64,000 nucleotides of DNA from a bacterium (GTDB lineage: Bacteria; Cyanobacteriota; Vampirovibrionia; Gastranaerophilales; Gastranaerophilaceae). The translations under genes and the position numbers were made by a program. Numbering within the stretch: the first letter of the stretch is position 1; every line of letters starts with the position of its first letter. The notes under the pieces were generated by a model. The model was not told where the DNA came from. It did no database searches and was given only the letters and a program-made list of their open reading frames with translations. The stretch is from assembly GCA_017470815.1 (NCBI GenBank), contig JAFUXT010000030.1:24561-88560 (forward strand). Direction: 5' to 3'. Positions 6,878 to 58,412 of this stretch are shown here, one piece after another.

Positions 6878-7146
6878 AGTTGCACCTATAAGTTTAAGAG
6901 TGACCGGATACCTTTTTTATTAAAGAGTGGTGTGGGGTATAACACTCATCGAAGACCTATTTGGACCTATAGGATGCTCCTACTACTATTGTAACATATT
7001 TTAACACTATTCACAAGTGTTCTCAATCCTCTTATATCAATAATTTTACAAAACTAAATAGTGGCAAATATACACTATAAAAGGGTTGTAGAATTTACAC
7101 TTTAAAAATTATCCGAAATAACTATTTAAAAACGAAAAGTTTATGT

Positions 7147-7152
7147 TATAAT
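7147..7152 (+). promoter_or_regulatory. Candidate -10 box (TATAAT) for the SRP RNA
   Basis: A perfect TATAAT ends about 6 nt before the first conserved SRP nucleotides (TGCCGTGC at 7158). Confidence 0.35.
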
Positions 7153-7157
7153 AAAAA

Positions 7158-7417
7158 TGCCGTGCTCCACGGGGTTGTTGCGAACTCTCGACCCGAAGCG
7201 AATGCGGGGTGCAGAGCCTGTTGTGAGGGCTTTATGAGTGCGTAAGAATTTAATGAAATTGTTGATATTAACACTTATGGCGGCGTGAAATTTCGAACCG
7301 TGTCAGGGGGGAAACTCAGCAGCACTAAGAAAACCTTTACGGGTGTCATATTTGTTAAAGTAGAGGACATTAAAGGATTTCGTATTTGTAAATTTCGATA
7401 GACAGTGGCACGGTTTT
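7158..7417 (+). ncRNA. ffs: Signal recognition particle RNA, long (Alu-domain, Bacillus scRNA-like) type
   Basis: 5' GCCGTGCTCCACGGGG matches the B. subtilis scRNA GCCGUGCUAAGCGGGG. Domain IV CCGTGTCAGGGGGGAAACTCAGCAGCACTAAG matches CCAUGUCAGGUCCGGAAGGAAGCAGCAUUAAG, with a GNRA loop and AGCAGC. 3' end GACAGTGGCACGGT-TTT matches GACAGAAGGUGCACGGU. Length about 260 nt. Confidence 0.85.
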
Positions 7418-7732
7418 AAAAGCGTAAGCCGATGTGGAGAGCCGGTGTCGGCATGCGGTAAGCAAGACGAGCAGGGCTCGGAACATGATATCACCGCCGT
7501 TGTGAACGGAACGAAAGTGAAGTGAACGAAGCAATCTTTGATTGCACAGGCGGAAAAAGCGTAAGCCGATGTGTAGCAACAGCAACGGGTTGACCTGTGA
7601 TGAGCAGGGCAAGCAGGTTGCGAAACATAATACCACCGCCGTTGCGAACGGAACGAGAGTGTAGAGAGCGTAGCAATCTGTGATTGCACAGGCGGAAAAA
7701 GCGTAAGCCGATGTGGAGAGCCGGTGTCGGCG
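7417..7732 (+). repeat. Tandem array (2 full units of ~138-142 nt plus a 37-nt partial unit) of a GC-rich, hairpin-rich element. Candidate structured RNA or cis-regulatory leader of dfx.
   Basis: AGCGTAAGCCGATGTG occurs at 7421, 7559 and 7700. GATTGCACAGGCGG occurs at 7540 and 7682. Hairpin stems are conserved and differences fall in the loops. 37 of 60 nt are G/C in 7441-7500. Confidence 0.6.
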
Positions 7733-7760
7733 TTATGGTCTATTTACAAGGAGTTTACTT

Positions 7761-8138
7761 ATGACAAGTCATTTAGAGTTTTACCGCTGTGAAATTTGCG
7801 GTAACATTGTTCAGGTTATGCACGCAGGAGCAGGAGAACTTGTCTGCTGCGGAAAACCTATGTCACTTTTAAAACCTCTTACTCAAAAAGATGAAAAACA
7901 GGAAAAACATATACCGGTCTTTCTTGAAAACAAAATTCAAATCGGTTCAGAACTTCATCCAATGACAGAAGAACACCATATTGAATTTATTCAGGCAATA
8001 AGCGATGATAAAAAATGTATTAAAACTAAATTTTTAAATACAGAACAAGAGCCTTCAATGACAATTAATGCGGATGACAATTTTAATTCGGCATTTGAAT
8101 ACTGTAATATTCACGGACTTTGGTATGGCGAACAGTAA
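7761..8138 (+). CDS. dfx: Desulfoferrodoxin (superoxide reductase, 2Fe type)
   Basis: Start re-placed to ATG 7761, with RBS AAGGAG at 7748-7753. N-terminal desulforedoxin motif CEICGNIVQVMHAGAGELVCCGKPM. KHIPV, HPMTEEHHIEFI and CNIHGLW blocks are typical of Dfx. Confidence 0.85.
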   Translation: MTSHLEFYRCEICGNIVQVMHAGAGELVCCGKPMSLLKPLTQKDEKQEKHIPVFLENKIQIGSELHPMTEEHHIEFIQAISDDKKCIKTKFLNTEQEPSMTINADDNFNSAFEYCNIHGLWYGEQ

Positions 8139-8201
8139 AAAGAAAGGGACAAATTGCCCCTTTAAAATGTACAGTTGTGGTTAAATAAAAATAAAGCACT
8201 T

Positions 8202-8226
8202 ATGTTAGGAAGCCCTAACATTTTTG
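8202..8226 (+). terminator. Rho-independent terminator downstream of dfx
   Basis: ATGTTAGG-AAGC-CCTAACAT 8-bp stem followed by TTTTT. Confidence 0.6.
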
Positions 8227-8240
8227 GCATTATAAATAAA

Positions 8241-41950: not shown

Positions 41951-42340
41951 ATGTTAAAAATCAGATTAAAAAGATTAGGTGCTAAAAAGCAACCGTCATA
42001 CAGAATTATTGTTATCAATTCAACTACAAAAAGAGAAGGTCGTCCTATTCAGGAATTGGGTTACTACAATCCAAAGACCAAAGAAATGAAATTTGATAAA
42101 GCAAGCGCACTTGAATGGATTTCAAAAGGTGCACAGGCAACGGAAAGAGTTCAGTATTTAATTAAACACTGCAACGAAGACGGTACATTAAACTATGTTA
42201 AAAAGGAAACAGTTAAACTTTCTAAAAAAGCATTAGCAAAAAAACAGGCTGAAGAAGAAGCAAAGGCTGCAGCAGAAGCAGAGGCAAAAGCAGCAGCGGA
42301 AGCAGAAGCACCTGCTGAAGAAGCACCTGCTGAAGCATAG
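41951..42340 (+). CDS. rpsP: 30S ribosomal protein S16 with an Ala/Glu-rich C-terminal extension
   Basis: MLKIRLKRLGAKKQPSYRIIV...GYYNP is the S16 signature. The tail is KQAEEEAKAAAEAEAKAAAEAEAPAEEAPAEA. Confidence 0.92.
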   Translation: MLKIRLKRLGAKKQPSYRIIVINSTTKREGRPIQELGYYNPKTKEMKFDKASALEWISKGAQATERVQYLIKHCNEDGTLNYVKKETVKLSKKALAKKQAEEEAKAAAEAEAKAAAEAEAPAEEAPAEA

Positions 42341-57800: not shown

Positions 57801-58412
57801 TTATCTTACTTTATTTTCTGTCCCTGCGATAAGTCTTTTGATATTTTCTCTATGCAGATAAATAACATAGACTGCCGCAACAAAAGCATAAATAACGTAG
57901 GCTGGCGGTGAATTTAAAAACCACATAATAACAGGGGCAAGCGCAAGCGCAATAATAGAACCTAATGAAACATATTTTGAAACCCATGTTATTATTGCCC
58001 AAATTACAGCAATAATAAGTCCTGCCTGCCAATTTAGCGCAAGCAAAGTGCCGACACCCGAGGCAACTGATTTTCCTCCGGTAAAACCTAAAAATACCGA
58101 TTTACTGTGACCGATTATTACAAAAATGGCTGCCAAAACAGGAAGTACACCAACATCTGCAAATGATTTTGTTAAAAAATATGCGAGAACTACAGGCAAA
58201 GCACCTTTAAAAGCATCTAAAAGCAGCACAATGAAAAACCATTTTTTGCCCATTACTCTTTTTACATTTGTTGCACCTGTAGAACCTGAACCGATAGTTC
58301 TGATATCTTGCCCCGTAAAGAGTTTTACGACAATATATCCTGTCGGTATTGAACCGATTACATAAGCCCCAAGTACTACAAACATTATTTCTAAAATCAT
58401 TTTTATATCCAT
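57801..58412 (-). CDS. plsY: Glycerol-3-phosphate acyltransferase PlsY
   Basis: GSGSTGATNVKR (GSGNxGATN motif) and FKGGKSVASG-type FTGGKSVASG. Five TM helices. Confidence 0.9.
   Translation of the reverse strand: MDIKMILEIMFVVLGAYVIGSIPTGYIVVKLFTGQDIRTIGSGSTGATNVKRVMGKKWFFIVLLLDAFKGALPVVLAYFLTKSFADVGVLPVLAAIFVIIGHSKSVFLGFTGGKSVASGVGTLLALNWQAGLIIAVIWAIITWVSKYVSLGSIIALALAPVIMWFLNSPPAYVIYAFVAAVYVIYLHRENIKRLIAGTENKVR

Follow-up and report, generated by a model that had tools for sequence, protein, structure and literature searches.

A Probable Family of Modular Structured RNAs behind the SRP RNA Gene of a Gastranaerophilaceae Bacterium and in Tailed Phages

Introduction

What is a GC-rich tandem repeat doing between ffs, the gene for the large signal recognition particle (SRP) RNA, and dfx, the gene for desulfoferrodoxin? 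The question arises at positions 7418-7731 of a 64-kb stretch of a Gastranaerophilaceae genome (GenBank contig JAFUXT010000030.1, assembly GCA_017470815.1; the whole stretch is herein referred to as the window), where a first-pass annotation had described an array of structured units and offered two explanations: tandem aptamers with a single expression platform for dfx, or a structured, possibly processed RNA co-transcribed with ffs. The host phylum is poorly known; the Melainabacteria are non-photosynthetic relatives of cyanobacteria that are for practical purposes uncultured, and neither Rfam nor the literature that we searched holds a structured non-coding RNA specific to them.

We conclude that the array very probably represents an unannotated family of modular structured RNAs whose units turn over rapidly by gain, loss, and multiplication. 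The family is found in the chromosomes of Gastranaerophilales (gut and rumen Melainabacteria) as well as in tailed phages and prophages of low GC content. Every member follows a gene directly, behind a stop codon or the 3' end of an RNA, and is sense to it, being placed either before the terminator of that gene or in an intercistronic gap. As to what the family does, we tentatively favor an RNA cassette that is exchanged horizontally, is co-transcribed, and affects the processing or stability of transcripts in cis.

Results

Two Units and a Partial Third between ffs and dfx

The array consists of a 137-nt unit, a 142-nt unit, and a third of which 35 nt are present, placed right behind the SRP RNA (7160-7413, a Rfam match) and ahead of dfx (7761-8138, where both desulfoferrodoxin domains are found), so that both neighbors are those originally named. 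The repeats are likewise present as described, apart from a shift of one position: AGCGTAAGCCGATGTG occurs exactly three times in the 64 kb, at 7421, 7558 (rather than 7559), and 7700, when only ~0.09 chance matches would be expected even with three mismatches allowed. The second box, GATTGCACAGGCGG(AAAAAGCG), lies at 7540 and 7682 and CACCGCCGTTGNGAACGGAACGA at 7492 and 7634; none of these boxes recurs elsewhere in the 64 kb, and the chance expectation is close to zero. A repeat search of the window returned a direct repeat of 130 nt with 82% identity at a spacing of 142 nt and a 35-nt block present three times (7418-7452, 7555-7589, and 7697-7731), of which the third copy is 100% identical to the first; Tandem Repeats Finder (TRF) with default scoring did not report the 140-nt array in the window. 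When seven divergent family members were used as nhmmer queries, the array was the single locus recovered from the window. Its GC content (0.51-0.57 over 7400-7750) stands out against the AT-rich flanks (0.22-0.36), and it is purine-rich, with positive GC and AT skew.

The features of the locus, all on the + strand, are as follows.

7125-7152, +: promoter-like site of ffs (TTTAAA-16-TATAAT with TG), the sole sigma-70-like + strand site upstream of dfx
7160-7413, +: large SRP RNA, ffs (Rfam Bacteria_large_SRP, 74 bits)
7418-7554, +: unit 1, 137 nt, "B1" domain I and alpha-type domain II
7422-7436, +: A-box core of unit 1 (GCGTAAGCCGATGTG), kept in all family members; its terminal ATGT (7432-7435) is the 5' strand of helix P1
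7436-7438 and 7480-7482, +: GGA and GGA, the 3x3 purine loop flanking P2 of unit 1
7439-7479, +: P2 of unit 1, GAGCC (7439-7443) with GGCTC (7475-7479) around a 31-nt variable insert
7482-7492, +: M-box linker of unit 1 (AACATGATATC); its ACAT (7483-7486) is the 3' strand of P1
7494-7553, +: domain II of unit 1, a three-way junction
7494-7498 and 7549-7553, +: P3 of unit 1, CCGCC with GGCGG
7500-7503 and 7526-7529, +: P3a of unit 1, TTGT with ACGA, capped by C-GAAA-G (7512-7517)
7531-7545, +: P3b of unit 1, GCAATC-TTT-GATTGC
7545-7550, +: invariant CACAGG of unit 1
7555-7696, +: unit 2, 142 nt, "B2" domain I and alpha-type domain II
7559-7573, +: A-box core of unit 2
7576-7580 and 7617-7621, +: P2 of unit 2, GCAAC with GTTGC
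7624-7634, +: M-box of unit 2
7636-7640 and 7691-7695, +: P3 of unit 2
7673-7687, +: P3b of unit 2
7697-7731, +: terminal partial unit, with an A-run, an A-box core at 7701-7715, and 16 nt from the start of a B1 domain I
7732-7760, +: short native dfx leader with ribosome-binding site (RBS) AAGGAG (7748-7753), homologous to the leader in element-free relatives
7761-8138, +: dfx, desulfoferrodoxin, 125 aa (Desulfoferrod_N and Desulfoferrodox domains)

The truncated third unit, which had been noticed for its likeness to the start of unit 1, matches it at 35 of 35 nt (7697-7731) and is degenerate in relatives. The array begins 4-8 nt past the ffs 3' end with no terminator between, and neither a terminator nor a second promoter is predicted between ffs and dfx, whether the site is filled or empty.

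A Two-Domain RNA with Covarying Helices

Across the family, units are 105-150 nt long and follow one plan: an A-run, the A-box GCGU(N)AGCCG(A/G)UGUG (consensus GCGUAAGCCGAUGUG), two purines, the 5' strand of P2, a variable insert ranging from a 4-nt tetraloop up to 67 nt, the 3' strand of P2, G-N, the AACA(U) M-box (the linker of host copies reads AACAUAAUAUC), domain II, CACAGG, and an A-rich tail. Both window units have each of the features that we propose for the family, namely the A-box, P1/P2, the AACA-type linker, a domain II ending in CACAGG, sense orientation, and a position directly behind a gene. Minimum free energy predictions made independently for divergent units arrive at a common P1-P2 and P3 architecture.

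In domain I, the AUGU of the A-box pairs with the ACAU of the M-box (P1), and P1, a 3x3 purine loop (typically GGA/GAA), and P2 form a continuous irregular hairpin; the A-box is otherwise predicted to be mostly single-stranded. Covariation was assessed on nine P1/P2 pairs in 17 distinct units against 500 shuffles. A MAFFT alignment of whole units had misplaced the divergent unit of L014 (related sequences are cited by L numbers), and domain I was therefore analyzed on trimmed sequences with the variable insert replaced by GAAA, which affects no counted column. Of these pairs, 99.3% are canonical, both strands have changed in four of the five P2 pairs, and the covariation score of 0.565 is reached in none of the 500 shuffles (0.134); once the partners are slid against each other, pairing falls to 15-49%. 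P2 occurs as GAGCC/GGCUC, GCAAC/GUUGC, GUCAA/UUGAC, GUCAA/UUGGC, GUGUC/GACAC, and GCGUU/AACGC, and in phages also as a hairpin of 11 bp, 8 bp, or, at the minimum, 4 bp. In P1, the outer pair is G-C instead of A-U in L054 and, judged by eye, a U-A pair is flipped to A-U in L074; P1 is weak in the L071 group. The proposal that this is a structured RNA whose helices differ in sequence yet keep their pairing is thus strongly borne out by domain I, and the closing helices first seen in the window (GAGCC/GGCTC and GCAAC/GTTGC) are real and kept in relatives, as is the hairpin CAATC-TNT-GATTG of domain II.

Domain II exists in at least two exchangeable forms. The alpha form, carried by both window units, is a three-way junction of P3 (CCGCC/GGCGG), P3b (GCAAUC-UNU-GAUUGC), and P3a, which contains tandem G.A pairs under a GNRA-type cap that varies between GAAA, GAGA, GCAA, and GUAA. 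Because P3 and P3b are invariant, the case for this fold consists of thermodynamic prediction, the clean absence of P3a from L014, and one covarying pair with one exception: the apparent compensatory change in P3a (U-A to C-G) partly reflects linkage of two unit haplotypes and fails in L007. A further hairpin of the first-pass annotation, CCGTT-GNG-AACGG, is present in the window but is not kept in relatives, where L005 reads CCGTTGTGAATTA and L014 has the segment deleted, and it competes with the better-supported CCGCC/GGCGG and UUGU/ACGA helices. In the beta form, a long hairpin of another kind lies between GACGUAGGA and ACCACAGGA; its inner helices differ among copies yet, by eye, stay complementary.

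The U.G pairs (UUGU/ACGA and GUCAA/UUGGC) and the tandem G.A pairs are workable on the + strand only, and together with the uniform orientation they point to function, or at least selection, on the transcript. Pairing between the 5' and 3' boxes of a unit (CC..UGUG with CACAGG), which had been suggested to close each unit, can indeed form in every member (-5 to -10.6 kcal/mol) and would compete with P1; since both boxes are invariant, covariation lends it no support. In phage copies, CACAGGAG overlaps or directly precedes the RBS of the next gene, and one may speculate that this pairing could tie downstream translation to the state of the A-box, where the upstream open reading frame (ORF) ends.

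Presence, Absence, and Unit Number at the Same Locus in Relatives

The closest genomes are rumen metagenome-assembled genomes (MAGs) (tree in PMC6785717, supplementary file 7), and the flanking phosphodiester glycosidase (NAGPA) protein has relatives that one source assigns to Candidatus Gastranaerophilaceae. Throughout the clade whose NAGPA identity is 82% or higher, the element lies between ffs and dfx in varying amount: L006 and L007 have one unit and a partial unit, the window and L008 have two units and a partial unit with the unit types in the same order, and L012 and L003 have at least two units of one type (the dfx protein of L003 is identical to that of the window), so that unit number differs among close relatives and within the species. 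The sister lineages L009, L010, L042, and L044 (74-79% NAGPA identity, same NAGPA-ffs-dfx synteny) lack the element altogether, and in them ffs is followed by an AT-rich spacer of ~60-90 nt and then dfx. An exact scan for the 22-mer GGCGGAAAAAGCGTNAGCCGATG in the contigs of representative genomes gave zero matches because these genomes carry a single-base difference in it.

Units that are present have diverged less than the sequence around them: identity between the window and L008 is 98.5% for unit 1, as compared with 89% for ffs, 79% for dfx, and 81% for NAGPA. Hence the two window units are not a recent private duplication, and both unit types are older than the species splits. Metagenome contigs repeatedly end inside arrays, beside dfx or a gene for a 429-aa protein (L002, L004, L012, L027, and L032-L035); assemblies break systematically at the repeat, and the array lengths given by MAGs cannot be relied on.

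Other Chromosomal and Phage Contexts

Eight further contexts with homologous units emerged from pattern scans and from look-ups anchored on proteins, which brings the total to nine, and in all nine the element is sense to its flanking genes. Several pattern matches in viral contigs were set aside as chance matches in GC-rich coding DNA.

A second type of chromosomal locus carries proteins named Candidatus Melainabacteria. In human-gut-type Melainabacteria, an array on the acpS strand starts 0-4 nt past the stop codon of that gene and runs up to a bidirectional intrinsic terminator, opposite which lies a convergent gene. Contigs with an identical flanking 429-aa protein (P0016) bear different arrays here (a beta unit only, an array ending in an alpha unit, or a chimera of alpha domain I and beta domain II), and other lineages have the order alpha-beta or beta-alpha. 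At leuS in L022, a single unit with a degenerate A-box starts 1-4 nt past the stop codon and is followed by a terminator. The window itself encodes a PlsY homologue (57804-58397, - strand) that is 66% identical to the PlsY beside the acpS array of L022; other genes of that neighborhood are absent from the window, which therefore does not show the organism's own acpS and leuS loci.

Phage copies are single units in IMG/VR contigs of 35-38% GC. They lie between the tail tube and tail assembly chaperone genes (L054/L069), after the tape-measure gene (L077), between two ORFs of 148 aa (possibly a head-tail joining gene) and 138 aa, the latter shortly before a 410-aa ORF (L071 and L079), and between tRNA-Leu and a small gene, with an integrase 3 kb away (L014/L047). 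L074 has two copies, one after a serine recombinase gene and one between two ORFs that resemble P2 tail/baseplate genes (D- and V-like). In L071, L074, L077, and L079, flanking genes were read from ORF translations, and the putative roles given for the 148-aa ORF and the L074 pair are to be taken in that light. The serine recombinase ORF of L074 (747-1445, N-terminus MSGQAVGYIRVSTVEQ...) runs through the entire element, gaining ~50 codons, because its A-box reads GCGGCAGCC instead of GCGTAAGCC; in the second unit of this contig (4111-4230), CACAGGAGG is the RBS of the next gene.

Two phages from one sample, 90% identical in their tube protein, allow a filled site (L069, 1940-2105) to be compared directly with an empty one (L070, 1925-1960). 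The empty site of L070 comprises 16 nt (last codon, stop, and RBS; GACTAAGAGGTGTAAT) as compared with ~175 nt in L069, where the insert brings its own stop (GCG-TAA, inside the A-box), the element, and a new RBS (AAAGGAG). The native stop-to-RBS spacer has been replaced, not interrupted, and there is no duplication. Units behave as cassettes that are present or absent between close relatives and that replace the native stop-to-RBS spacer in a phage; they recombine at conserved linkers, which gives rise to chimeras, reordered arrays, and changes in copy number.

Known Classes of RNA and Repeat

None of ten riboswitch classes considered at first reading had been recognized in the array, and the database comparisons agree. 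Rfam 15 gave no match to the array at gathering thresholds and none to window positions 7380-7790 at E-values up to 10; at the same E-value, the related L025 array gave only far-subthreshold matches, mostly to its terminator hairpin, and the host and phage relatives gave nothing relevant. A blastn comparison of the array with INPHARED phages and PLSDB plasmids found no match, and literature searches by taxon or topic and by literal sequence returned nothing relevant to the element.

Several specific identities were considered and set aside. A clustered regularly interspaced short palindromic repeat (CRISPR) array would have repeats of 24-48 nt and unique spacers, as opposed to a period of 137-142 nt and variable parts that are a few structured module types recurring across species; TRF reported no CRISPR-like array in the window. 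Type III antitoxin RNAs have units of ~36 nt rather than 137-142 nt, and what follows the array is dfx or a terminator and no ToxN/AbiE-like toxin. A hammerhead ribozyme, which would have the invariant core CUGANGA ... GAAA around three helices, is rejected given the absence of a Rfam match, an A-box reading CGAUGUG, and a post-P2 string that varies between GAAAC, GGAAC, and GCAAC. Repetitive extragenic palindromic (REP) sequences and bacterial interspersed mosaic elements (BIMEs), taken strictly, do not fit one locus in 64 kb, nine sense contexts of nine, and two-domain non-palindromic units. A miniature inverted-repeat transposable element (MITE) is at odds with the phage site, where 16 nt are replaced without duplication, and with unit ends that are not inverted repeats beyond 4-6 nt. 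No transposase (such as would mobilize a REP) was found among the annotated genes around copies (Pfam for L001-L004, L005, and L022-L047; PHROGs for L054).

A coding repeat was rejected because the ATG of the A-box opens 9, 17, 23, or 31 codons depending on unit type and is missing from L014 and L054, no Shine-Dalgarno sequence precedes it, and the covarying changes in P2 alter the encoded peptide. The template and variable repeats of a diversity-generating retroelement would differ specifically at adenines, which is not what the units show; the number of GGA motifs is what purine-rich composition predicts (a rough estimate from the sequences), which does not favor a CsrA-type sponge; and an origin from ffs or rRNA is contradicted by an identity with ffs of only 8 nt (GCGUAAG) and by the lack of any Rfam rRNA match.

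Discussion

A Proposed Transcribed Cassette Acting in cis

The reading that we tentatively prefer, a horizontally exchanged RNA cassette acting in cis, can be put as a mechanism, of which the specific form is possible but a little less assured than the reading itself. The element would be transcribed as a trailer of its upstream gene, in the window from the ffs promoter, with dfx probably on the same primary transcript as ffs, as is probably also the case in element-free relatives. Acting at the RNA level, its compact fold would punctuate the transcript, defining or protecting the 3' end of the upstream RNA, serving as a processing site, or both, and the upstream RNA would thereby be uncoupled from what follows (in the window, the dfx mRNA). 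Chromosomal arrays would arise by unequal recombination between A-boxes. The earlier suggestion of a structured and possibly processed RNA co-transcribed with ffs remains compatible with this scheme, in which dfx is a downstream neighbor and no conserved partner of the element.

A number of observations weigh against this reading. Co-transcription and processing are steps that we infer, and simple 3' stabilizers need no ~25 invariant nt. The alpha domain II is near-invariant across genera, without covariation; recent horizontal spread or recognition of the sequence itself would account for this better than would a generic stability hairpin, and hosts that share the near-invariant linkers and alpha domain II have proteins only ~65% identical. 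This invariance is the main unexplained point, and it suggests either frequent phage-mediated transfer or a sequence-specific partner. The leuS copies of L023 and L025 are decayed remnants, which together with the degenerate terminal units show that some copies are dispensable. The copies seen amount to one locus in the 64-kb window and two within 9 kb in L022, figures that are not per-genome counts, and exact unit counts may be wrong in short-read metagenome assemblies that are often broken in the repeat.

Alternatives

The alternative that survives best, although we consider it unlikely, is that the trailer is cut at the A-rich junctions into small RNA monomers of ~120-140 nt, the A-box of which acts in trans as a seed for target RNAs or as a protein sponge, with phage copies exploiting or countering the same partner. 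The head-to-tail units with A-rich junctions suit such a scheme, as does the fact that the most conserved segment is predicted to be unpaired at the unit 5' end with protective structure behind it; strain-level turnover resembling that of loci under conflict, along with conservation above that of ffs, could be accommodated as well. However, the A-box is purine-rich and lacks an anti-RBS-like sequence, no complementary site with up to three mismatches exists in the 64-kb window, no partner was identified, and the phage copies, single and packed tightly between cistrons, are a better fit to action in cis.

Slightly less probable in our estimation is a purely selfish DNA repeat (MITE-, REP-, or BOX-like) without RNA function, with hairpins kept for a transposase or recombinase acting on single-stranded DNA and found behind genes because insertions are tolerated there. 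Presence/absence polymorphism, decayed copies, chimeras, and spread across hosts and phages are all to be expected of such a repeat, and proteins could bind the near-invariant palindrome GCAATC-N3-GATTGC as well as the remaining invariant boxes. This explanation sits poorly with nine sense contexts of nine, with the lack of terminal inverted repeats and target-site duplication, with a phage spacer that is replaced rather than interrupted, and with a low density (one locus in 64 kb); the GNRA-type loop variation and the G.U and G.A pairs are moreover strand-specific. No transposase was noted beside copies among the genes annotated, and L074 has a serine recombinase immediately upstream.

A more ambitious proposal, which we regard as a long shot, is that of a new functional RNA class common to Melainabacteria and their phages, either a transcript-punctuating self-cleaving ribozyme or hypervariable host arrays that act against, or are exploited by, phages carrying the module; in the host-phage version this would occur via titration of a common factor or RNA-RNA interference between homologous folds.

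The ribozyme taken by itself, which we judge improbable, would be a new small self-cleaving class with the A-box, M-box, and CACAGG as a putative catalytic core held by variable helices, cleavage at unit borders releasing monomers from arrays and separating cistrons in phage operons. Bacterial hammerhead and twister ribozymes typically have a patchy distribution and are common to phages and hosts; the element, too, is patchy, phage-host shared, intergenic in late operons, and arranged in tandem arrays, and its invariant linker nucleotides lie between helices that covary or can be replaced. It nonetheless resembles no Rfam ribozyme model even at E-values up to 10 and gives no in silico sign of cleavage, and hammerhead-like strings (GAUGUG ... 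GAAAC) fail at invariant positions, given the GGAAC and GCAAC variants and the missing U4.

Finally, the tandem riboswitch, with two aptamers and a competing third 5' box as one expression platform for dfx, has very little left to recommend it and is rejected: the array does lie directly upstream of dfx with no separate dfx promoter or ffs terminator predicted, and the A-box does have alternative partners (the M-box in P1, the B1 insert, or CACAGG), but relatives share the ffs-dfx arrangement without the element, unit number varies among near-identical strains, the units are not consistently in a 5' leader (acpS and leuS arrays end in intrinsic terminators facing convergent genes with nothing downstream to regulate, and phage copies lie between unrelated structural genes), the variable parts are whole domains rather than peripheral stems around a conserved pocket, and no Rfam riboswitch matches.

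Other Features of the Window

Three further features of the window are recorded here. Between the dfx stop codon and a convergent 328-aa gene (8139-8240), the hairpin AAAGGGACAAATTGCCCCTTT is followed by the hairpin ATGTTAGGAAGCCCTAACAT and a T-run; the motif ACAGTTGTGGTTAAATAAAAATA between these hairpins is kept in L007-L010, and 14 of its 15 nt match the leuS 3' end in L022 (ATTGTGGTTAAATAA). On the other side of ffs, the NAGPA gene has a 5' leader of ~113 nt (6878-7000, - strand) with a promoter-like site upstream (7026-6998). This leader is near-invariant in relatives with only 64-82% protein identity, has no Rfam match, and is predicted to form the hairpins GGAG[CCUAU-loop-AUAGG]CUUC and GAGUG-(13-nt C-rich loop)-CACUC and to pair its RBS region with GGUAUCC; we list it as a candidate cis-regulatory RNA. 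TRF also reports a short, in-frame-looking tandem repeat at 42246-42335 (periods 15, 18, and 24, GCA/GAA-rich), probably a low-complexity coding repeat.

Significance and Comparison with Known Systems

With a clear consensus, one strongly covarying domain, a filled site whose empty counterpart is documented, and no fewer than nine independent genomic contexts, the family is a tractable candidate for work on transcript punctuation and stabilization in its host phylum and for ribozyme screening, being directly testable as a processing element or as a ribozyme. It also explains recurrent assembly breaks beside ffs, acpS, and dfx in gut and rumen metagenomes and counsels caution in annotating such GC-rich leaders as riboswitches.

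The family is new within a known general kind, that of gene-flanking structured repeats, and its unusual traits are the two-domain modular build, the sharing between phage and host, the strict sense orientation, and the tandem arrays behind stable-RNA and housekeeping genes. The REP/BIME elements of enterobacteria (e.g., at malE-malF) protect upstream mRNA 3' ends and set differential expression within operons. Like the present element, they are structured repeats behind genes or between cistrons, transcribed with the upstream gene and forming mosaic arrays of a few module types; however, REPs are palindromes of 20-40 nt with hundreds of copies in alternating orientation, mobilized by REP-associated tyrosine transposases (RAYTs), whereas our units are 105-150 nt long, two-domain, of low copy number, always sense, and dissimilar in sequence, and no RAYT was seen. 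Pneumococcal BOX elements (boxA-boxB(n)-boxC) share conserved end modules, a variable internal number, and stable predicted intergenic RNA folds, but they are confined to streptococci, are unrelated in sequence, occur in both orientations and in >100 copies per genome, and are not reported in phage operons.

Among RNAs proper, ToxI-type RNAs are likewise head-to-tail arrays of a structured repeat and are processed into monomers, but their repeats are ~34-36 nt, a quarter of the length of ours, and the toxin endoribonuclease gene stands right behind them, where our element has dfx, terminators, or phage structural genes. Mu-gpT-DE-like phage motifs also place a conserved RNA structure directly downstream of a highly expressed phage structural gene; our element has no Rfam match to that motif, occurs in host chromosomes as well, and forms arrays. 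Hammerhead and twister ribozymes and the RAGATH motifs, lastly, differ from the element in their cores and in having Rfam ribozyme models that it does not match, and they resemble it in their intergenic phage and prophage locations, their clusters or arrays, and their conserved junction nucleotides between covarying helices.

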